A DNA stretch of 64,000 nt from Thelocarpon superellum (Eukaryota), in assembly GCA_026025795.1 (NCBI GenBank), contig JAPEUG010000049.1, positions 1-64,000 of the forward strand, in the 5' to 3' direction. Below, piece after piece: positions 8,611 through 64,000 of the stretch (positions are counted from its first letter, which is position 1; every line of letters begins with the position of its first letter). The notes under the pieces were generated by a model. It saw nothing but the letters and a program-made list of their open reading frames with translations. It made no database searches and was not told the origin of the DNA. The translations under genes were made by a program, and so were the position numbers.

Positions 8611-10611
8611 GTGCACTGGGAACTCTTCTCGGAGAGCATGTTGTGCCGCACCATTTCATGAAGATAGACCACAGACGTACTATTGTAGGATTGGTAAATT
8701 TTGGGGATGAGGTTGATCTGTGCGGGCCTTGATCTCCCTGCCTGTACGGCGCCGGGCGCTCAATGAACTGACCGAGAAATTTTGCGGCATGTTTAACCGA
8801 AACACACAGATCGTCGGCCACTGCGCCAGTCAGCTCCGGCGTCGCGGAAATTGCAAGCTGGCGGACGATGCCGCGATGGTCAGGAGCATCTCAGGTCCAA
8901 CAATGATGCAAAAGCGCGTGAGACATACCGCCAGCAATGCTCGATTCAAGAATCAGGCAGGGGGATGATGGACGTAATTCAATCAAGTGTGTCAACCTCC
9001 GGTAGATGACGCTGGGTATGCACAGATGGGGAACGGGGTCGACGTCTCCTCTTCGCACCCCTTATGGCCTGCGTCAACAGCACAACAGAGGCGTGGGGCG
9101 GACGCGCGGTGACGTGGCCCGATGCGGACACAGAGATGCGTAGCATGAGGCTGAAAGGTCTTGAGAAGAAGCCGAGTCATATTTTGGCCCCATGGCGACG
9201 ACGCTTCGCAGAGGCTGACCGAGGTTTGTAACCGCGCCACCTTGCCGCCGTGTCACACCTCGGGGCGAGCCGCAGGATGAAACACCGGGCATGCAGCGCA
9301 GATGGAGCTCATGGTCAAAATCCATTCCCACGCCGACGTTGGCTCATCGTACGACACCACCTTGGATTGTTCCACACCTCATCCTTTGGACCTTCGCTTT
9401 TACAAGTGGATCACTTTGGTGATATTCCCGTGGGAGAGGTCGATCTGATCAATGTGGTCGCAACCTCCTTGAGAACACTGCGAATACTGAATGCATGCAG
9501 CCAGGGTGGCCTTGCAGATGCGTGGAGAGGAGACGCTCGGAATTGCAGCGAACATAGGCGGGGATGGCACATCAGCGCAGCATCCAGGATGCGCCATCTG
9601 GAGACACAAAGTGGGTCTGATGAAGGTGCCGTGTCCGACGGTTTGGCTGCTCAGCCTCAACCAACATTAATCGCCTAATCTTACCGGAGATGGTGAGAAA
9701 GCTCCGCTTACGGGTCAATTTGTTCCGGATGTCGTGAGGCTCGCCCTGATCAATCGATGAGCCGACGGGAGAGCGACGGGAGAGCCACTGTACTGCGGAC
9801 TACTTATATTTAGTCGTGGCTGACGCGCACCCCAGGTCGCACCGCTAATTGGCGCGTGGTGGGCCTCGGTAACGCTGCCTTTCCCTTTTCTAGGAAATGT
9901 GCTCTCACGGTCCCGAGAATCCCCCAGCTTCGCTTAACTCTTCCACCGGGATGGTCCGGGAGTGCGCTGCGGGGCCGGGACGAGCATGACGATGACCGCC
10001 GACAATCATCAGAAGCTCCGATGCTGCGGCTCGCACGACCAACGTCATGCCACATCTGTACTAGTGATCTACTTCACTAATGCTTGTGTTAGTAGAATCA
10101 TGAGCAGTTGCACCGGAGGGCATCATTCCTCTCCCTGGACTCGGATCCACTTGTACTCCCACGGGCTCTGCACGCCGTCAGATCTTTGCCTAACTCATGA
10201 GCCATCGCCGATGCCCTTCCTGGTGGAATTCGACCCGAGCGGGGAGAGCGCAGCAGACATGGATCTGTTTTCACGGCAGCTGTGGTCTCCTTAACCATGC
10301 CTGCATTTGTTCTAACCTTGGATGTAGCCCCATCTCATGATGATCCAAGCCACTATCCCATTATCCACCATGGGCACCATCCGGTCCTCCGCGGCTCAAG
10401 CTTACTTTGGTCTACGTCCTTGCTAGTACCATGTCTATACCGAACAGACCCTGTTTGATCTCCTTCCTACATCTTACACGACTTTCCCTTATTGTCATTA
10501 ATTTCACATCCTCCCCCCGATGGCATGCTGGGAGTCACACCTCCTATTCAATTGCGACACAGTCTTTGTGGCCATGTTAACTGGCTTGTAGATGTTCTTC
10601 ACTCTTTATCA

Positions 10612-12505
10612 ATGTTACATCTCCTCCCCTCTTCCGTCCCTACCATCTCCTTCACACTCCCCTTCATTCTTGAATCACTACTCCTCTGGAGCCTGGTCAC
10701 GGGCCCGGTGGCAGCCAGCACAACCAACTGTAGCCGGCCATTCAACCTGGGTCTTAGGTCTTTGCTGATGGCGATTTCTAGACACTGGTACTATCTCTGC
10801 GACCGTGACACTTCCGGAGTTCAACAACGGCACGGAAAGCGCGAGAATCACTCGAACGATCAGTAGCGACGACGTGATCCTCAGCTACGGCGGATCGACG
10901 AACGCAGCGGTCAGCCTATCCATCTCATCCGCGAGCCTCTCCCTTGCCATCGTCTCAAGCAGCGGCACACAGTTCAGTGCCAGTGCCAGTGCCACGACTG
11001 GTACACCTTCCAACCTGACCGTCCTCGGGCAAGTTGGCGCGCCCCCTTCAGGTCTCGAGCATTCGCTCTGGGCCACCGACAGCTCCACCACGGTCCCCAC
11101 GACCATCTCGAGTAATTTCTCCGCGGGAGAATCGTCCCTGCAGGGATTCCTAGGCGGACAGACGGCCCAGCTCCAGATCAACGCCAATGCACCTACCACG
11201 TCCAATCCTACGACTCCAAACTCCAACGGGTCCCCGGTCAACGCTGAGCTCGTCACAGCGCAGTTCGAGATCATATTTCAGGGAACGTGGTGTCCGCATT
11301 CGGCTCCGCTGTCCGTGGCCACGACCAGCTCGCCATCCTCTACCTCTCCCTCTACCTCGTCTTCATCCTCGCCTTCACTTTCACCTTCGCCTTTGCCCTC
11401 GTCAGCCTCATTCCCGTCCTCTACCACGGCACCAGATATCCCCAGCAACGCCATGTCGAGCACGGCCTCCGCATCGAGCGCCACGCCCAGCGGCACGGCA
11501 TCGCTTGCACCGAGCGCGGTGGCCGGCATAGTTATTGGCACGCTAGCTGGCGCTGCGGTCATCGGGGGCGCCGCTCTAGTGGCGCTATGTCTCTTGCGTC
11601 GACAAGACGCGGAGCAGATTGCGGCGGGAGGGAAGAATGGAGGCGAAGGAGGGGAACAAGAAAGGGAGAAGGGAGGCGACAAGGAAAGGGAGAGGGAGAG
11701 GGAGAGGTCAAAGAGCTGGTACGGCGTCGCCAACAGGAAGAAAACGCTGAAGACCGAACGACCCATTACGTATCCGGAACTGGCCTATCTTTACGACGCG
11801 CGCCGGCCCTCTGCGGCTAATTCAGCCTCGGCTTCAGCTTTAGCACGGAGACCGAGAGGGATCTCGAATCTGTCTTTGAACGAGTCCACCTCTGCCTCCT
11901 CCTCTTCTCCTCCCTCTGGATCTCCTCCTCCTCCTCCTCCTCCCCCGGCACATTCGTTCCCGCATCACTCTTCTTCCTCCATGCCCCTTCTCTCTGCTTC
12001 AGCACCGCAAGCTTCATGCACGCTCTCCCGCGCCCTCTCACCTCGCTCCCCTCCTCGCTCCCCTCCTCATCCAGCGCAACTCCGCATGCCCACGAGCGTG
12101 CAGAACGCATTGCACATCGTCGAACCACTGCAGATTCATAAGCAGAGCGTGCGTGCCAGATCGATGACTGCCACGCTGACGGCAACAGGGCCAAGAATCA
12201 CGTCGACTCTGCAATCTGCTCCCCTTGATCCTCTCCCTCCCTTTCCCCATCCACGTGCGTCTCTATCCCCATCCCCATACCCACCTCCCCCTCCACCCTC
12301 ACCTTCCTCCTTGGCCTCCCCGTCACTATCATCACGGCCCGACGCCAGATGCGCAGACGACGTCGTCTCGCCTCTCACACCTGGTGAACTGGACGGGGGA
12401 AGAGGGGAGGCTGTGGTATCATTCGATCGCAAAGCCCTTGTCACTTTTGCGTATTCCCCCACTGAGCTGAGCCACGCTGCTGTTTTCCCGGGGAGTTTCT
12501 TTTGA
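10612..12505 (+). CDS. Type I membrane protein with Ser/Thr-rich ectodomain and Pro-rich cytoplasmic tail
   Basis: ATG 10612 gives a hydrophobic leader ending LLLWSLVTGPVAA. Intron 10730-10781 (GTAGCC..GCTGAT..TAG) joins it in frame to the 566-aa ORF. TM AVAGIVIGTLAGAAVIGGAALVALCLL-RR. Confidence 0.7.
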
Positions 12506-17043: not shown

Positions 17044-17952
17044 CGCGCCGAGCCAATCATTGGCCAGCGATGAATTTACTTACCGCCAAGGGCCAAGGGG
17101 GAAGGAGGGGTCCGAAGCTCGTCCTGCCGTGTACACGCACACTGGTCGGTGATCGGTCGTGGGCCGGCTGCTTCCGATATGGCCTAAATCGCGGGACATG
17201 CGATCGCCGCGCCGGAGGGGGGCCCCCCGAGTCATGTAGAGGGGCCCCCACAGCGCTGCGAGTCAGTATCGCCTCATTCGCTGTTCACTTCGGGTCTAGC
17301 GGCGGGGGATCTCCCCGTGGGGCAGGGTCGCGAGCAGAGAATCAGCAGGAGCGGGAGCAGCGGCGACGGGCACGGCAACAGTAAGCGAGAAATGGTAGAG
17401 TAGGCAGTAATAGACGACGAGCAAACAGCGTGGAGCAAACATTTACTTGCCCTTAACCACCCGCAAACGATAGACAGCAAACGATTCCCATAAAGCCTGC
17501 CAGCCTCACACTTCTCCTTATTCGGCCAGTCTATATCCCAACAGCAATGGACTCTTTTCAGGACGTCGCCATGCTATCTTCCTCGTTCGGCGATGCCAGA
17601 GATGCACGGCATGCCGCTGCTTACTCCTCCCTCACCAACATGAACAAGCTTCGGCCTCCCTGCTCCGGACAATGGCACCTTCAGCTCCCGCATGACTCTT
17701 CTCGACGTTACACATCTTTCCTATACCGTGAGGCTGTCGATGCCTTGACTACTGCCACTTCACCTCGGAAAAGTCTGTAAGCCATGGTGGGCAGCAGCTC
17801 TCCTACGCCGCCCTCTCAGCATAGATATATCCCAACGAGGTACGTGGTTTTCTTCACATCATCGCCCCTCCAGCACGCTCCACACACTCAACACACGAGC
17901 ATGGCAATCATCCACATCCGCAGAGAACCTCGCAAATTCGAGCATCTCCACA

Positions 17953-36200: not shown

Positions 36201-37791
36201 TCACCGTGGTCCCAGCTTCTCCAGTGCTCTGGGCCCCTGCTCGGCCCATTCGGCGCGCGATATCCACATATTTTCCTTATCGGCCATCTAGTCGTCTTCA
36301 TCAGCTCTCTCTCTCTCTCTCTCTTTCCTCCCCTTCCTCCCCTCAGTGCCCATCTGAGCAGGAGAACGAAGAGGATAGAATAAAGGGACGAGGAGACAAA
36401 GGGGAACCCACAATATTCGCCAGTACTGCTCCGCCTAGGAAGACCATATGTCGTCGACGAGGAGGATCTTCAATGCGAACCTTGAATTTCTGTCACCATC
36501 ACATTTGTTAGCTCTCCCTTCTTACCCCTTTCCATCTCCCGCCTCCATTTCGTCGTGGAAAAGGGGAGGAAACAAACGTTTAGTCTTTCGGGGTCGCCTT
36601 TGAGGACCCGCGTCAACCACAACTGCTTCAGCTCCTTCTCCAACCGGCTCGGCAGACCAGGGTACATGCTGCTGCCGCCGCTGAGCACAATCGCCTTGAA
36701 CAGGCTACTACGCACGTCGACCTCGGCCGCCTGGATGGTGTTGAAGAGGAATTCGGCAATGCCGGGCTGTTCGACGTCGACCAGGTGCGGCTGGAACAGA
36801 CATTCCGGCGCCTCAAATCGCTCGCTGCCCACGCGGATGACCCGGCCGTCCGGGAGGGTGTAGCTCTCCACCAGCACCGTCGTGTCCTCGCTCAGACGCT
36901 GGTCTAGCTCCAGATCGTAGGAGACGTAGCATAGCTTCTCCTTGATCTGCCGCACCGTCTCAAAGTCTGCCGTCCGGTTCAGGGCATAGCCACGGCGTAG
37001 GAGTAGCGCAATCAGCTGGCGCGTCACGTCCCGCCCGGCAACGTCGAGCCGTCGCGTCAGATGGTTGAGCACGGTAGATTCGTAGACGGGGACGATGTGG
37101 GTGACCCCGTCGCCAGAGTCGACCACCACGCCGCTGCTAAGTCCTGCGATGGTCAGCGCGCGCCGTCACCTCGATGGATCCCTCATACCCTGCGCGTACA
37201 AGGCCAGCACCGCTTGGATGGCCACGTACACGCCACCAAACCCATACGTCTCAAACATAACCTCGCACATCTGCTCGCGGTTCTTGAGCGGATTCATCGG
37301 CGGTTCGGTCAGGAGAATCTTGCGGCCGGTCGGGTCAATCTTCATCTTGTCGTAGAAGGTGAAATTCCACAGATGTTGCATGTCGTCCCATTTCTTGACG
37401 ATGCCATTTTCCATCTACGCCACGATCAATTTCGCGCCATCATCACGGGCACGGTGCGGATCCTACCGGGTAGCTGATCTGGAGCATGGCCCGCGCGGCC
37501 GCTGCTTCGTCGCCGCACATGATATCCTTGATGACCAAATCCCCTGCCTTTTCTTCCGTGCGCAGGATGGGTCGGCCGACAATGGAGGGAAACTGATATT
37601 CGGGGAAGTTCTGTGACCACGGCATCAGCGGTGCCTTGGCAATGTGGTGGCATCGGGGGGTCAAAGCTCGATACCTGCGCGGCATACCCAACCTTGAGGA
37701 ACCCCGTCCCTCCATCGAGGACTATCCGACGACGTCAGTGTGAACTCCTCGCGGCACGTGCACCAGCCTCACCTATGGGTGCCTCCGACAT
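36201..37791 (-). CDS. ARP2: Actin-related protein 2
   Basis: Seven exons. Motifs [67 protein letters not shown]. Confidence 0.97.
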
Positions 37792-37944
37792 GGTGAGGAC
37801 TTGACGCACTACGAGAGGGGTGATGAAGGTGGAAGGATGTCTTGAGATCGCAGTGATGCCCCACCACGAGCGCGCGCCTGCGTACTCGCGCGGGTACCGG
37901 CCCTGGTACTCTGGTACGAAGTACGAATACTATGACTGGTAGTG

Positions 37945-37983
37945 TAGGAGCGCGCACGTGATCTGGTCACGTGCCCACTCCTA
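37945..37983. promoter_or_regulatory. Inverted repeat containing twin CACGTG E-boxes upstream of ARP2
   Basis: TAGGAG-cgc-GCACGTGA-tctgg-TCACGTGC-cca-CTCCTA read directly. Confidence 0.5.
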
Positions 37984-38014
37984 TTAGTATCCCGACTACG
38001 CGTAGATTAGCAAT

Positions 38015-38803
38015 TCAGCTCTGATTCCTACAATGTAAAATATTCCCATACAAATTGTATGAACAGATGAAGGTCAAAACGAATTCAACGAGACCGAAGA
38101 CAGCGTAGGCCAGGAAGATAACCTGGTATGCCCACCCACACAGCGTCCCAACCCTCCCCTGTCCCAAGGTGTTGCACAACCCAGCTTGCAGAGATCATGC
38201 CACTGGTGTGGCCGACCTTGCCAATGAGGTCATGCCAGGTGAAGATGTCGCTCCTCACCACATACAGCGTGAGCTGTGCCAGGGTAGAATCCTCAATGGC
38301 GCAAAACAGCCCAATCTCATTTCCTCTGCAGAGGCGATCAGTAGGCCTTGACAATCCACCTCAAGCGCACACTGAAGAAAACCGTTAGCAGGAAAGGGCA
38401 CTCACAAGGGGCTGATCACACCCAAGACAGCCACAGCCAGTAAGATCCAGTAATTGCCCACAGTCGCTAAAACAACCCCACTGCAACTCACCAGCACAGC
38501 GCCCAGCGCCAGCACATGCTGGTGACCCAGCTGGTTGGTGGTCAGGGTGAGGATGCAACTGATGAAGATGTCCCTGATCAGTGTCAGGGTCATGAAGAGG
38601 CTGATCTGTGTCTTGGACACACCCAACGCCACAAGGTAGAGGGCCAGGATCAACGTGGACACACTGTAGGCAAGCATGCGCACGAAGCGCTGCAGCATCA
38701 ACAACCGCACATTTTTGGGCGTGGTGTCGAGCGTCACCAGCCCGATCTCTTTGAAAACCCTCCACACGAGCGCCATGGTCATCTTCTTCATGCACGATGC
38801 CAA
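38015..38803 (-). pseudogene. Truncated, frameshifted MFS transporter pseudogene with CpG-transition hypermutation
   Basis: LQRFVRMLAY..TLILALYL..LFMTLTL..GNYWILL..GVISP|GNEIG..AIEDSTLAQLT..SDIF.W marks a fungal MFS family. Intron 38405-38326 is retained in the DNA. Frameshift at gtgtgggtgggca (~38135). The C-terminal half is absent and CpG is strongly depleted. Confidence 0.85.
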
Positions 38804-39519
38804 GCTCTCGCCCGATACCTAGAACCATGGAAGGGTAGACGCGCGTCTGGGAGAGGCGCCATAAATGTTAAACTTGTACTGCACACCCCACTATGGACTA
38901 TGTTACTGGAGGGGTGGAGGGGTGACGCTTGTGGCACAGCCGTACTTCTGTGTCGTGCTAACGGTCTCGAGGCACGCGTGCGCGCGGGTTCGCTGCTAAG
39001 TTACATGCAGCACCATGGCCGCGCCGAGCGGTTGGCAATTGCCATCGCACTCCAGAGCGGCGTGACAGGTGACGAGCCTTTCCAGCGCCCCAAGCTCGCG
39101 TCTATCTACGCTGAACTTCGGCATCGCCCTTCAAGAAGTCAGACCACGTGTGCTGTGGCCAAAAGCCGGAGTCACTTGACAGAAAGATGTGTGGGAGCGT
39201 GCGGACACGCCCTGCGAGGACGGCCGCTTGGGTGGAGGTGCTCATGGTCAGCAACCATATTGGTGGCCAGATGTGGAGTGCCGGCGCTATCATCTATCTT
39301 CATCCTCATCCGTCTCCAACCTAACCAGGCCCGACCAGGGATACATGAGCCAAGAAAAAGAATTCGTGTCATTACAAGATAAGGTGAAAGCGGCAACAAA
39401 CGGCCAGAAATCTATCCGCTTCCAAGTTCTGTGCCCATTGACACCGTGGGCACGATGAGAAGACATGCAAGTGCATAGCCTTCTCTTCCGGCATGAATCT
39501 CCTAGGCAAGCAGAGCATT

Positions 39520-41604
39520 TCAAGGAGTGATCTGTACCATTTGCGACACGCTGGGGACCCCGGCCGAGTTCAAGGCGAAGAGCATCCAGTACCCTGGGAT
39601 GGCGATGCCCGGGTCGTCTGGCACCTGGAAGGTGAGCGTGTTGGTGCCGACGGTCTGAAAGTCGAGGGGGATGCGCCGTTGATCGGTGTTCACCGTGTGA
39701 GTGGTCGCGGCATATCGAATCAGCGACAGCTCCGTCACCGGCGAGTCGGTGGTGATGGTGACGGAGCCACCCACGGGCACCGTCGCCGCCGACAGGGACT
39801 GGATCACCGGACGCGGCGCCGGTGACCCGTCAGACGCAATCAGGTATGGAGGCGTGAAGATCTGCGCGTCGAAGTGGTTGTAGGCGCATTCAGCGCCGCA
39901 GAGACCTCCACCGCCACTGAAAACGGTGGCATCGGGCATCAGGAGGGCAACGCTGTGGTAATCGCGTGCGATAGAGTTGGCTTGCATTGGGGTAAAGGTC
40001 TGGCTGGTCGGATCCCACAGCTCGGGCGTGAAGTCGACGTTACTGTCCACGAACGGGGCGCCGATGGTCTGGCCGCCGGTGATGAAGACTTGTCCGTTGG
40101 GCAGCGCGACGCCGTTGGCGAAGATGCGTGAGTAGGACATCGACTCGAGCGTCGTGACAGACACATCCCCGCCAGGCGTGTCGATCTGGATCAGGTGTGC
40201 GGCCGCCGTGGCCTCGCTGCCGCTGTAGCTGGGCGACCCGCCCGCGGCCAAGATCTTGCCCTGTACAGCATCGTACATGACCGCGACGCCGGCCATGGCG
40301 TCCCCATCTCCGGCCCGTGGCCCAGCCGCAGTGTAGCTGCCGGTGCCAGAGGTGTCATACCAATTCATCGCGGCACTGGGCCCGGCCTGGAAGACGGAGC
40401 CGCTCTTCCAGGCAAAGAGCCAGGCATGGTTGTCGGCCCGGTAGATCCCCGCCGAGTCGTTGGTGAGCATGGGTGTCACGTCGCAACCGGGCAAGACGGT
40501 CCATGTGTTGGTGGAAGGGTCGAAAATCTCGCCATTCTTCCCGCCCAGGGCGCCACTCCATGAGCCCCCGATGAGAAAGGTCCGTCCGTCGGAGCAAGTG
40601 GCAGACGACTGATAACCTCGGGGGATCTGCAGCTGGGGTCCAGACGTCCACGTGTTCGCGTTCTGGTCCAGGAGACTGGTCGCCGCGTCGTTGGAGCCGC
40701 CGGTGGCGATCACGATTCCGTTGAAGTCGACCGACAAGCCCTCACAGAACATGTCATGGTTGGTGTTGCTGACGACCATCTGCGTCACCGTGTCGGTGCT
40801 CGGATCGTAGGTCGCCGTGCAGGTAACGCCGTACGGGCTGGGTTCGGAGTCGGGCGCCGACGCCGACCACACCACCACCCTCGACGTCTCCGGCTCGATG
40901 GTGGCGGAGACGGGAATGACGGGAAAGTCGATGGTCGGGCCCCACATTCCGAGTCCGCTGGCTGGAGGCGTGTAGCTTGCTGCAGCAAAGACGTTGATCT
41001 CCGCGCCACTGCTCCATGGTCCGCGATTGCCCGCCTCGCTCAGAGCCACGAGACGGACACAGCGGGCCGGCTGGGTCTCGAAGGTGGTGTACTTGGTCAT
41101 GTTGTTGTCGATATAGGTTCCGAAGGCCACGGGCGACCCGAAGTCCGTGCAGTCGGTGCTCAGGAAGATCTGATGCTGCCCGATATTCCCATTCGAACCC
41201 CCCAGTGGATTGCTGGCACCATCCTGTCGAGGCAGATAGGCGATTCCATTCACATTTTCCGTCGTTTGCATGTCGATGGTCACGTTGTGGGGCAGCAGCG
41301 CCAAATCCGGAACCCACTCCGTGTGCCAGTACGTCGTCGGATCGCCGTCAATTAGATTATATGGGATCCACGGCCACTCGAAGCTGTCCGCCGCGATTGT
41401 CCAGCCTGTCTGATTCAAGGCCTGTCCAGAGACTGGCGGGGCCTGTCGCACACGAAGGATGTTGCTCTGAGGCAGGGCAACATCGCGTGCCTCCACCTTG
41501 ACGGCTTCAGGGTGCGGGGGATGGGCGGCAATAGCCCCGGCCACGCCCAGTCTTGCATGCACCGTAACCAGTACCAAGGCACTGATCTTCCATAGTGGGA
41601 GCAT
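39520..41604 (-). CDS. Secreted galactose oxidase-like copper radical oxidase (AA5_2: CBM32/F5_8 + kelch + C-terminal domain)
   Basis: Signal peptide from ATG 41604. F5/8 domain (IDGD..WHT..YLPRQDG..NGNIG). HDMFC (cofactor Cys), RGYQSS (cofactor Tyr), GGSWSG, YRADNH, RDYHS and THTVNTDQRR (Cu ligands). Intronless. Confidence 0.93.
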   Translation of the reverse strand: MLPLWKISALVLVTVHARLGVAGAIAAHPPHPEAVKVEARDVALPQSNILRVRQAPPVSGQALNQTGWTIAADSFEWPWIPYNLIDGDPTTYWHTEWVPDLALLPHNVTIDMQTTENVNGIAYLPRQDGASNPLGGSNGNIGQHQIFLSTDCTDFGSPVAFGTYIDNNMTKYTTFETQPARCVRLVALSEAGNRGPWSSGAEINVFAAASYTPPASGLGMWGPTIDFPVIPVSATIEPETSRVVVWSASAPDSEPSPYGVTCTATYDPSTDTVTQMVVSNTNHDMFCEGLSVDFNGIVIATGGSNDAATSLLDQNANTWTSGPQLQIPRGYQSSATCSDGRTFLIGGSWSGALGGKNGEIFDPSTNTWTVLPGCDVTPMLTNDSAGIYRADNHAWLFAWKSGSVFQAGPSAAMNWYDTSGTGSYTAAGPRAGDGDAMAGVAVMYDAVQGKILAAGGSPSYSGSEATAAAHLIQIDTPGGDVSVTTLESMSYSRIFANGVALPNGQVFITGGQTIGAPFVDSNVDFTPELWDPTSQTFTPMQANSIARDYHSVALLMPDATVFSGGGGLCGAECAYNHFDAQIFTPPYLIASDGSPAPRPVIQSLSAATVPVGGSVTITTDSPVTELSLIRYAATTHTVNTDQRRIPLDFQTVGTNTLTFQVPDDPGIAIPGYWMLFALNSAGVPSVSQMVQITP

Positions 41605-42148: not shown

Positions 42149-42900
42149 TCGAGGCAATTGTAGGCCGAGATGACAGCCGTGTGGGCCATCCTGACAGGAG
42201 GACAAGGCTGTCCGTGTCTTTCTCACAGTTTGCACTTCCCTAATCCACGCAGCCTCATTGCAGCCAGTGCCACATGTTCAGAACAGTGGCCCGGCACGAG
42301 CGGAGACCGTTTCCGAACATGCCGAAGCGACCGTGGGCCGTGAGCCCAGAGCGAAGACCCAAGTGATCTATTTTCGTACCGAGCGTACCCAGTTGACTTC
42401 AACTCAAGGAGCAATGCGATTCACGCGTCCTAGTTGGGGGATATTACGGGTTGTCGATCGACAAGACTCCGAAGATTACGGGACAGACCGCTAGGTAGGA
42501 GGATGATTTGCCGTAGAATGATGGCCGCTCGGAAAAAAACATGACTAATGGTAACAAAGCAGTAGTTGCCTCTCCTTGAGGCCTTGCTAGGCGCCCCATT
42601 CGCACTAACATAACATACCTGACCGACTGCAAGATCAGAACCCTATGGAATGGATATCTACGGACGCCGCGCCCACTGCCCGTCCCGATCTAGCGGGTGC
42701 GCCCCACCGCCCTACGCTCGCGCGACCCGGGTGGCCCTCGCGCGACCGGGGGTGTGCCGGGGTGCGGCGCAAGTGATCACTGCTGCCTAGCAGCAATTGG
42801 GGGAAGGTCCCGCTTCACCACACATTCCGGCCAATGATCGTGGCGCTCTCCAACTCGCATGTCCACCTGGCAGTGCTGCGCCTCTCTTAGTGCGGGAACC

Positions 42901-61585: not shown

Positions 61586-64000
61586 CTGCTCCATGATCAG
61601 AATGGCCGCGAAAGGTGTCATGGACGGAATCAAGAAGTGCGAAGGCCTTGGAAGAGCGCTGGACAGGATAAGAACAGTCAGAGGGGGTTGAGAGGCCGAA
61701 TGAAGTGCGAGGTGCCTTGGAGTTCAGGGAGAGTTCATAGCTGGAGGTCGCTGTATCTCATCACCCGTGCAGCCAGAGAGGGTTAAGGGTCAAGGGTCGT
61801 CCGTATGGAGGACCAGGACTTCTGAAGACATCGGGCACCACAGTGGGCGATCGACTTTTCCATAACGTAGGTGCCAAGGAAATATGCAAGAGCAGCTCCC
61901 ATCAAGACGGCTGCATTGGCTCGCCTTCCCTGCGGTGTCTGGCCCGAGAGCGAAAGAAGCAAGAGACCTGCCTCGATTACCTGCCTATCGGCAAGGTGGG
62001 TAGGTGGAGACGGCAGGGAAAAGCAAAGAATGCAGGGCCTACACGCTGGAAGGGATGTCTGATGCTTGCAGGAAAATATCTGTACGACCACATCACTGCT
62101 CTAGCTGGGAAACAGACGAGGCTGTACATTCAGCCGGCACTGGTCGACGTGCCCCGGTTGCGAGCAGGAGCAGGATGTCCAAATAGCTCCATGTGCCAAG
62201 AGACGCCTCTGGCAACCAAGGACGATCGCTCCTTGTTTCGTCAATCCACATGGCGCTCCAAGTTTGCGTGCAACATGGGAGCAAGAACAATGGTGGGGCT
62301 GTGCGCGCCTGGTCCGGTCGATGGGGCCAAGTCTCGTTGTGTCGCGCGTGTCTGGAGCCTGGAGTGGGAGGTACATGGTGCACACTGTATTCTAGTCGAT
62401 ACGCCACCTGCGGATCGACCATGCGGCCCATGGTTTGCGTCCTCGCTGCCGTCTTGGCACTCTCTCAACCGTTGGGGAAGGAGCGTTCCCTTGATGAGTG
62501 GCTGCAGAGAGCGAGAAGTTGTTATTAGCATGTTTCACAGAAGGCCTGCATCCTGGAGAAATACGATTGGTTTTCCGCCTTACTTTCACCCGTTGAAGGT
62601 TCAGGTAGGGTTCCCTCTTGGATTCAGCTAATTGGACCAATCACAATGGAGGGTGAAGATGGTGAATTGAGCTATCTGTTAGACGACCCTTTTTATAGTA
62701 GTTAGTAGTTAATTAGGTAAGAGAACACGTGATCGCCCATATCCTCCACAGCGTCTACGACCGCTGCCAGTCAGCGGGCCAGCCACTGTGGCGTTCAGCT
62801 GCACTGCAGCTTGCCTCATGGTGCCACTGGGTGGCATACCCCGCTGATGCATGATAGGCACGGATACAATGGACAGAGGGCATTGTTTGCAGAAGAGCAC
62901 CAACGTACGAGACGCGAGACCAAGCCCTGCAGACAGTCATGTTTGTGAGGCGGCCAGCAAAAATCTATGCCAGAGTTTTGGTATGTGAACGTAACAGAGT
63001 GCCAGCAGCTCCCGGCTGGCACAGACTTCTGCTGCCCGCCTCGCGCCTCGCGCCTCGCGCCTCGCTCCTCGCTCCACCTCGCCTAGTCATGAGCTCTGCT
63101 CGTGACCAGTCTCTCTTCTCTTCTCCAAGAATCAATGTTGCTAGTACAAGCGACCTCAGTTAATGAGCAATCCCATCAAGCATGTCATATGTCTAATCTC
63201 TAATCTCTACTTATACATCAGAAGGGTGAATACTTTCGCTACATGCTATGATCAAGTTTGACAAGCTTTGTGGGGACAGCACCATATCCCGCTCTAATTC
63301 GTCGTTCCACCAACACACCACAACCGCATTGCGTCCTATCTATTCACGCCTTGGAGCCCACACTCTTGGGCGACATGCTGGTCCTCGCTAGCGATGGCTT
63401 CGGCACGGATCAGGACCTCACGGGGGACATCGACGTCAGTCCGCTTGCCCCGCTACGATACCAGTTCGCTAGCTCCGGCTTGTCGTATCTTTGCTGAAAG
63501 CGATTGGGAGCGTTGGGGCATGTTGCGCTGCGCTGTGCTGCGATTACCCTTCGTTGGTAGTGCACCGCGGCTGGGCTGGATATATCGGCGCTTGCATTGC
63601 ATCCGAGCTTGTGACGGCGTTTTGGCGGCGGTGGGATACCAAGGCCCGCACACTGTCCACTGGTTTTAGGGGGACGATCGAAAAAAGCGTCTTAGATGTC
63701 AGATAGTTATAAGATATCAGATATCAGATATGGATGGATGAATGTATGAATGGACGGAGCAAGATGCTTGTTCTCAAATGAACTGCCTTGGTAGTCGTAC
63801 TAGCACTAGCACTGGCTACCTCACGTCGCACGAGTTGAATCGCCGACGGCGCGACACCACCCTCCTTCATCAGGGGCAGACCGGGTTAAAACTGGCCTCA
63901 TCCCCTTGCCACCTGCCCTCCTACACCTGTGCCTGCACCGCTTCATCTCACTCCGAAGCTTACTCCGAAGCTCACGGGAACAGCTTGTGCTCGAGCGTCA

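Follow-up and report, generated by a model that had tools for sequence, protein, structure and literature searches.

The genome of Thelocarpon superellum probably hosts a RIP-type, homology-triggered C>T mutator that acts on long repeats and strikes CpG far ahead of CpA. The case begins with a truncated, frameshifted MFS pseudogene at positions 38,070-39,025 (minus strand) of the window, the whole 64,000-nucleotide stretch of DNA analyzed, whose full-length paralogue lies on contig C690. A first-pass annotation of the window had proposed an MFS pseudogene damaged by repeat-directed CpG hypermutation of a duplicate, and both points are borne out: the segment is a truncated, frameshifted copy of the C690 gene, its family-conserved codons have changed at 12 of 28 CpG targets versus none of 16 CpA targets, and 15 of 20 RT loci from the same genome have a CpG o/e of 0.10 or less.

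The MFS pseudogene and its paralogue

Genome searching paired window positions 38,070-39,025 with a single long homologue, C690:3480-4409, and neither DNA nor protein search of the genome (G000) gave a third copy of the MFS gene, the protein search yielding only these two. The C690 gene, the intact paralogue that the first-pass annotation expected to exist, can be aligned with a fungal MFS homologue of 472 aa over residues 7-469, whereas the window copy ends near residue 215 of that homologue and, being truncated and frameshifted, holds no full-length intact frame. Exon 1 of the C690 gene retrieves 126 MFS-type homologues, and the MFS_1 match in the pseudogene scores under the Pfam cut-off; its group is a YJR124C-like fungal one, a name taken from the label of one match.

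By alignment, the homologous segment (956 nt, minus strand) runs from lightly mutated upstream non-coding DNA of about 250 nt (38,777-39,025) through exon 1 (38,406-38,776) and a retained GT-AG intron placed as in the paralogue (38,326-38,405) into a remnant of exon 2 (38,070-38,325), where homology stops at 38,070 and the 3' half of the gene is absent. The duplicated segment had been reported to end at 38,803 and continues to 39,025; positions 38,804-39,025 are 83% identical to the paralogue, with T in place of CpG cytosines at 5 of 38 sites. The DNA-level duplication deduced at first pass is confirmed by the intron at the paralogue's site and by the shared upstream DNA, which together rule out a retrocopy. 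Exon 1 keeps an open frame with missense changes at invariant G, D, R and A residues, and the exon 2 remnant carries a 4-nt frameshift near 38,136-38,139. Among the residues replaced are a G invariant in 119 of 119 homologues (three times), a D (119/119) and an R (118/119). Identity to the C690 gene is 79.6% over 917 aligned columns and 86.4% with CpG-type changes set aside.

An 827-aa database model, P0002 (window 38,405-41,604), splices exon 1 of the pseudogene onto the neighboring galactose-oxidase-like gene (39,535-41,604, minus strand; domain and homologue search). It matches the window at 100% by way of a 700-nt splice and terminates at a stop within the intron; judged from sequence, the galactose oxidase-MFS fusion is probably a gene-calling artefact. 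Apart from one 35-nt piece, RNA run X5 leaves the pseudogene fragment uncovered. The galactose-oxidase-like gene itself has normal CpG and served, with its 70% paralogue, as a control. An actin-related gene (36,470-37,790, minus strand), which we take to be Arp2-like, ends 150 nt from the solo LTR at 37,943-38,032 and shows no CpG loss.

CpG loss, mutation spectrum and strand order

Across 38,101-38,640, CpG counts per 60 nt are 2, 1, 2, 2, 2, 0, 3, 0 and 1, in agreement with the 0-3 first noted over 38,100-38,640. The composition scan places the depleted core at 38,108-38,647, which with 12 CpG and an o/e of 0.29 is the lowest 540-nt stretch in the window (median 1.03, sd 0.15). In a 400-kb background of regions lacking known RT matches, amounting to ~2% of the genome, an o/e of 0.29 was reached by none of 18,920 overlapping 540-nt windows (minimum 0.41), and none of 760 separate 500-nt windows on the four other contigs concerned fell below 0.45; further gene-derived CpG-poor islands were absent from these 400 kb, the sole island being a tandem-repeat stretch (o/e 0.37). 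Also as first described, CpA and TpG are abundant at the locus (o/e about 1.5) and TpA is not raised. The sharp 5' boundary of the original description gives way to a gradient: counting paralogue CpGs that are either kept or altered by transition, 10 of 33 are changed in 38,641-39,025 and 32 of 42 in 38,070-38,640. Four CpGs persist in 38,080-38,104, at the end closest to the break. The window's second-lowest CpG stretch, 10,250-10,800 (o/e 0.45), is single-copy in the genome and has no evident coding role; the paralogue search covered this stretch and, apart from it, the window beyond position 17,900.

Changes were polarized with 116-119 aligned homologues. Of 204 codons, 83 are family-conserved, and the window copy deviates at 16 of them: besides the CpG and CpA counts given above, CpC changed at 0 of 35 targets and CpT at 2 of 15, with 1 of 66 possible AT>GC changes and 1 of 396 transversions. 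The substitutions are thus neither evenly spread over contexts nor dominated by CpA (CpG versus other C>T, p = 4e-6), and the altered conserved residues are not family variants. The C690 paralogue has no derived change at conserved sites. Eight replacements singled out at first pass, namely G>S at 38,665 and 38,602, G>R at 38,575, A>T at 38,539, D>N at 38,536, R>H at 38,524, P>L at 38,309 and R>C at 38,303, are indeed CpG transitions at conserved codons, and S>L at the donor junction is a change from TC-g to TT-g relative to the paralogue. R>Q at 38,608, 38,533 and 38,521 is CpG-type at less conserved sites, E>K at 38,614 is a CpG change against the paralogue although the family mostly has D there, and the supposed V>I at 'gac-atc' has to be withdrawn, the paralogue having identical codons. 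That the copy is mutated "almost only at CpG" therefore holds at conserved codons (12 of 16) and not for nucleotide differences from the paralogue as a whole, of which CpG-type changes make up 62 of 187 and the remainder is mostly old third-position divergence.

Relative to the paralogue, C had become T in 47 of 191 CpG, 8 of 117 CpA, 14 of 164 CpC and 12 of 102 CpT contexts (p = 9e-7), and the change is directional (47/191 in the window copy vs 5/90 in reverse, p = 6e-5). The C690 copy has 6 CpG-type changes in 612 coding nt and an o/e of 1.07, with no CpG excess. The pseudogene follows no strict TpCpG rule, CCG being changed at 13 of 36 sites and TCG at 9 of 22. By codon position, transversions fall 12/3/33, attesting to long purifying selection, and the CpG changes of the window copy fall 13/13/18, attesting to none. 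The pair is no fresh duplicate, its two genes having diverged to about 86% identity, with purifying selection at work, by the time the CpGs were lost; spectrum and codon positions together identify an old working paralogue that lost its CpGs in a late episode.

The CpG-type changes are ordered by strand. All 62 form 20 strand runs where 31.1 are expected (p = 0.002), and a stricter set of 41 sites forms 12 where 21.4 are expected (p = 0.003). On the gene strand (minus), 11 successive changes at CpG in 38,517-38,614 are G>A, and 22 of 23 CpG changes in 38,260-38,498 are C>T. Six sites of the G>A run lie across codon boundaries and changed by missense although C>T would be silent, so the run was not made by selection. 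None of six control paralogue comparisons clustered. The test was chosen post hoc, after the pattern had been noticed, and a lightly mutated retroelement copy on C667 serves as an independent check, with 62 runs against 80.7 expected (p = 0.001). Clustering was absent from all eight main-family retroelement copies (p 0.058-0.90), including the lightly mutated L018 (p = 0.81), and from the heavy C190 copy of a second family (p = 0.59); in sum, it is seen in one of two lightly mutated and none of eight heavily mutated copies. RIP mutations arise in strand-coherent bursts, and the strand runs fit burst-like RIP better than passive decay, so that the test leans to RIP. Several mutation rounds would blur strand order in saturated copies, an account that L018 does not fit. 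One preprint, in its accessible part, scores RIP per mutated strand.

Strain differences at the pseudogene provide a hint. Low-depth contigs of one other study carry the same pseudogene (X2 and X3 belong to one study, have matching contigs and were counted once). Eight listed differences assigned to this locus, seven from the other study and one from an RNA run, each on one contig of depth <5, are all C:G/T:A transitions: four CpA, two CpG and two CpT. In the intron, positions 38,343 and 38,387 keep CA in the other strain, against TA in the window and CG in the paralogue; the other strain also retains the conserved Gly at 38,186, and the two strains have resolved the CpG at 38,632/38,633 on opposite strands (one low-depth contig). 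Rows 38,556-38,582 were dropped, as they read as the C690 paralogue where checked (38,573-38,576).

Retroelements, solo LTRs and spared duplicates

Among 20 fetched RT loci, CpG o/e was 0.00-0.10 in 15, 0.35-0.68 in three and normal in two, and transitions far exceed transversions between copies (e.g. 316:5). Aligning seven heavily mutated copies to the lightest copy of one family gave, in CG-type columns (n = 1015 cells), CG 22, CA 467, TG 455 and TA 71; CA-type columns had become TA in 209 of 1463 cells and TG-type columns in 110 of 749, and CpC and CpT were changed in 18 of 1141 and 62 of 2128. The family has lost 98% of its CpG and about 14% of its CpA, with CpC/CpT losses of 2-3% and transversions of <0.3% between copies, a CpG loss that we calculate to be 60 to 120 times that of other C>T. 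At the dose received by the pseudogene, our arithmetic predicts about one CpA change in 16 targets, and none was observed. CpA>TpA is a real second target, seen in ~14% of retroelement CA-type columns and at two intron sites of the pseudogene (low-depth contigs). The original verdict of "not classical CpA RIP" was right in placing CpG first and, given this second target and the strand runs, overstated in so far as it meant "not RIP"; a more apt label is "RIP with a CpG preference". By the composite RIP index, just one of the 20 RT loci scores positive and 19 count as not RIP'd, and the pseudogene core scores -1.22.

Partial CpG loss (o/e about 0.6-0.7) marks L034 (C667:88054-95000) and L036 (C776), and the C667 retroelement copy has an RT frame without stops. 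Normal CpG and long open frames set two RT-domain loci apart, L035 (C79:63071-66595) and L037 (C555:1754-5008), which may be host or single-copy RT genes. Blocks of 22-26 kb nearly free of CpG, each with several RT domains (C667:88063-113901, C190:57461-80000 and C1:41445-65053), are likely nested elements; a 90-bp unit bounds the C667 block on both sides and each of the other two on one side. In a count that omits edges running into unaligned depleted DNA and blocks of <210 nt, 10 of 14 block edges regain an o/e of at least 0.74 within 200 nt, two lie near 0.5, and at two the depletion persists for 400-600 nt. Two dispersed repeats also occur in the window, one of ~250 bp at 42,641-42,892 (at least 4 other matches, CpG kept) and one of ~165 bp at 62,589-62,753 (at least 13 other matches, CpG-poor, o/e 0.2-0.65).

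The 90-bp unit recurs beside the pseudogene, where a repeat search identified it at 37,943-38,032 (plus strand) as a solo LTR of an LTR retroelement that keeps its 7 CpG and has no TSD. Between it and the pseudogene lies a 37-nt AT-rich filler (38,033-38,069), absent from the paralogue, whose 26-nt core is single-copy in the genome. Genome-wide, the unit has at least 155 candidate copies. At C31:33302-39509, a 6.2-kb RT-bearing element has the unit as direct terminal repeats, with an outer 4-bp TSD, a PBS-like motif and a purine tract; these terminal repeats rule out a MITE or a Helitron capture, and Rfam gave no match over 37,700-39,500. Of the two LTRs of the C31 element, one retains its 7 CpG in full and the other is devoid of CpG, units at element ends hold 0 to 7, and 22 fetched copies keep 122 of 148 CpG. 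Perfect TSDs flank 11 of these 22; the window copy lacks one, so DNA was probably lost at the break. A contig of the other strain runs past 38,036 into different AT-rich DNA instead of the LTR, and a 30-mer from its loose end matches nothing at up to 3 mismatches. On its far side, the solo LTR is flanked by DNA with an o/e of 0.99.

Six paralogue pairs of 69-75% identity over 378-1843 nt have o/e values of 1.08-1.37 on both sides and are unmutated, and the pseudogene/C690 pair is the one pair available above the RIP identity/length threshold. The limits of RIP, given as 80% identity and 400 bp in the consulted parts of PMC3017866 and PMC4165359, are consistent with these data, the 956-nt, ~86% pair being mutated on one side and the 90-bp units and 69-75% paralogues being spared.

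Mechanism, competing explanations and known systems

The check for RID/Masc1, DIM-2 and DNMT5 suggested at first pass found all three types, assigned by domain layout: a RID-type gene on C99 (C-terminal PF00145, no BAH), a DIM-2-type gene on C514 (methylase with BAH) and a DNMT5-type gene on C97 (methylase, RING and SNF2). The RIP-type reading is built on observed features (the mutation spectrum, the thresholds, the methyltransferase genes and the runs by strand), whereas its timing, enzyme and partner are proposals. An old MFS duplicate diverged under selection, then lost most core CpGs, gained the frameshift and lost its 3' half; retroelements bear the same signature at saturation, and short solo LTRs and paralogues of at most 75% identity are spared. 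The damage may have come in a few bursts, acting on one strand at once over 100-250 nt, with RID and/or DIM-2 acting before meiosis and DNMT5 perhaps maintaining CG methylation. The ~86%-identical C690 gene would be the pairing partner, of which an undamaged allele would have survived because the copies, being unlinked, segregate and the functional one is retained by selection.

The main weakness of the RIP-type reading is that C690 shows no CpG excess. RIP normally mutates both copies of a duplication, which is not seen here, though segregation and selection could hide it. The 48 coding transversions, a mark of long coexistence, are hard to square with strong post-duplication RIP, and further points against this reading are that the longest perfect match remaining between the pair is 28 nt and that strand clustering is missing in nine retroelement copies. 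Gene duplicates of the CpG-depleted kind number one. We advance more tentatively, as a possibility, the stronger claim that RIP in this lineage has been retargeted to CpG, proceeds by single-strand bursts and can recognize an unlinked paralogue of ~86% identity long after duplication and kill one of the two.

A rather unlikely alternative is methylation followed by passive decay, in which homology triggers CG methylation of the MIP type, DNMT5 maintains it only where the copy is silent, slow deamination yields TpG, and DIM-2 adds the CpA changes. It would account for the untouched working paralogue, for the saturated copies without strand order, for the CpG at 38,632/38,633 and for the sharp end of depletion at most repeat edges, as described for MIP in the accessible text of PMC4165359; the genome has a DNMT5-type gene of methylase, RING and SNF2 layout. 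The parts consulted of PMC8016269 and PMC4352252 lend precedent: Dim2 makes mitotic CpA mutations in Zymoseptoria, and Amselem et al. ascribe CpG signatures to methylation and deamination, not RIP. Symmetric 5mCpG, however, should pick strands randomly, which is not what the pseudogene and one retroelement copy show. Mammalian CpG decay is roughly 10- to 15-fold, a rate exceeded by the retroelement CpG excess. The earlier suggestion that a duplicated fragment was "methylated or hypermutated at CpG" is upheld for hypermutation, the strand runs fitting a RIP burst over methylation and decay.

We regard as improbable that the same mutator had another trigger, either a near-identical twin since lost or spread from a large neighboring element since deleted, leaving the solo LTR. 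The puzzle of the asymmetric paralogues would vanish, and DNA was probably lost here, given the solo LTR without TSD; the other strain has differing AT-rich sequence past 38,036, CpG loss fades toward the 5' end, two of 14 repeat edges carry 400-600 nt of extra depletion, and in Neurospora DIM-2-dependent RIP mutates unique DNA flanked by closely spaced direct repeats (bioRxiv 10.1101/344036, in the part consulted). Spread is opposed by the ten edges with normal o/e within 200 nt and two more near 0.5, by the four CpGs surviving at the end nearest the break and by the far LTR flank; a twin is opposed by the two-copy result of the DNA and protein searches and by the flat contig depth of the best-matching run, which has no listed variant over the fragment, though contigs cannot prove a third copy's absence. 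Chance or the coding bias of a divergent working gene, to which the open exon 1 and its inclusion in P0002 might point, is refuted, short of spliced full-length transcripts, by the replaced invariant residues, the frameshift, the absent 3' half and the context and rarity statistics.

The RIP-type process proposed here fails the CpA test of Neurospora-type RIP and the no-mutation test of MIP, yet works like RIP. As in Neurospora crassa, changes are C>T only, C:G>T:A transitions dominate the repeats, long repeats are hit and short or diverged ones spared, gene duplicates are destroyed, and RID and DIM-2 types are present; unlike there, CpG is the main target and CpA the second (0/16 CpA vs 12/28 CpG in the pseudogene), and one copy of the pair is mutated. 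With MIP of Ascobolus immersus it shares the CpG preference, an effect coextensive with the repeat (10/14 edges) and similar size and identity limits (PMC4165359, accessible part); MIP, in contrast, is uncoupled from mutation and silences without it, whereas here mutation is massive, with a CpA component, and 98% of CpG was lost with few other changes, though later decay could still have followed. TpCpG hypermutation of basidiomycete transposons in Microbotryum is likewise CpG-centred C>T in repeats, but those fungi are without RID and DIM-2 according to the part of PMC4352252 consulted, and no strict TpCpG rule applies here.

The closest match is a CG-preferring, RIP-like signature, with CpG>TpG ahead of CpA>TpA in repeats and RID and DIM-2 types present. 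As cited in PMC4165359, and to the extent of the text available, CG-type RIP is predicted for Uncinocarpus reesii, also an ascomycete with DIM-2 and RID types whose repeats are short of CG rather than CA; Thelocarpon belongs to another class, the Lichinomycetes (PMC12238968, in part, and the database label of P0002), and the Uncinocarpus account, as far as accessible, mentions neither a test of strand order nor an old host-gene paralogue among the targets. Transposons of Tuber melanosporum, Aspergillus niger and A. fumigatus are described in the consulted part of PMC4352252 as carrying CpG and CpA signatures, with CpG ahead of CpA in Tuber and with RID and Dim2 present; the CpG part is there ascribed to methylation and deamination, whereas the runs by strand seen here speak for an active burst. 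Another paper reports no RIP signal in Tuber (PMC4165359, same proviso); in the present genome, CpG loss is nearly total. From the text available of PMC7862722, DNMT5 maintains CG methylation in Cryptococcus, and CG methylation is high in two ascomycetes with RID, Dim-2 and DNMT1 or DNMT5. Searching by title and abstract opening found no literature treating either RIP or methylation for Thelocarpon or the Lichinomycetes, and the accessible text of PMC12543289 has neither "CpG" at a word start nor "Lichinomycetes"; no literature tying DNMT5 to CpG depletion in fungal transposable elements was found, and subscription literature and supplements may cover CG-type signatures.

The CG-first signature itself is already known; the additions made here are the evidence from strand order, the finding that standard indices are blind to the signature and the case of a host-gene paralogue as victim. 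The field has yet to settle whether CpG loss in fungal repeats stems from RIP or from gradual decay of methylated DNA, and strand order in lightly mutated duplicates offers an inexpensive way to tell them apart. Surveys based on CpA would miss the defence of this genome, as the composite index does in 19 of 20 RT loci. If RIP is indeed retargeted to CpG in this lineage, the CpG signatures of ascomycete repeats, usually ascribed to passive decay, would include true RIP invisible to standard indices. The locus further shows that an old host-gene paralogue can fall victim, which bears on the retention of duplicate genes in such fungi.
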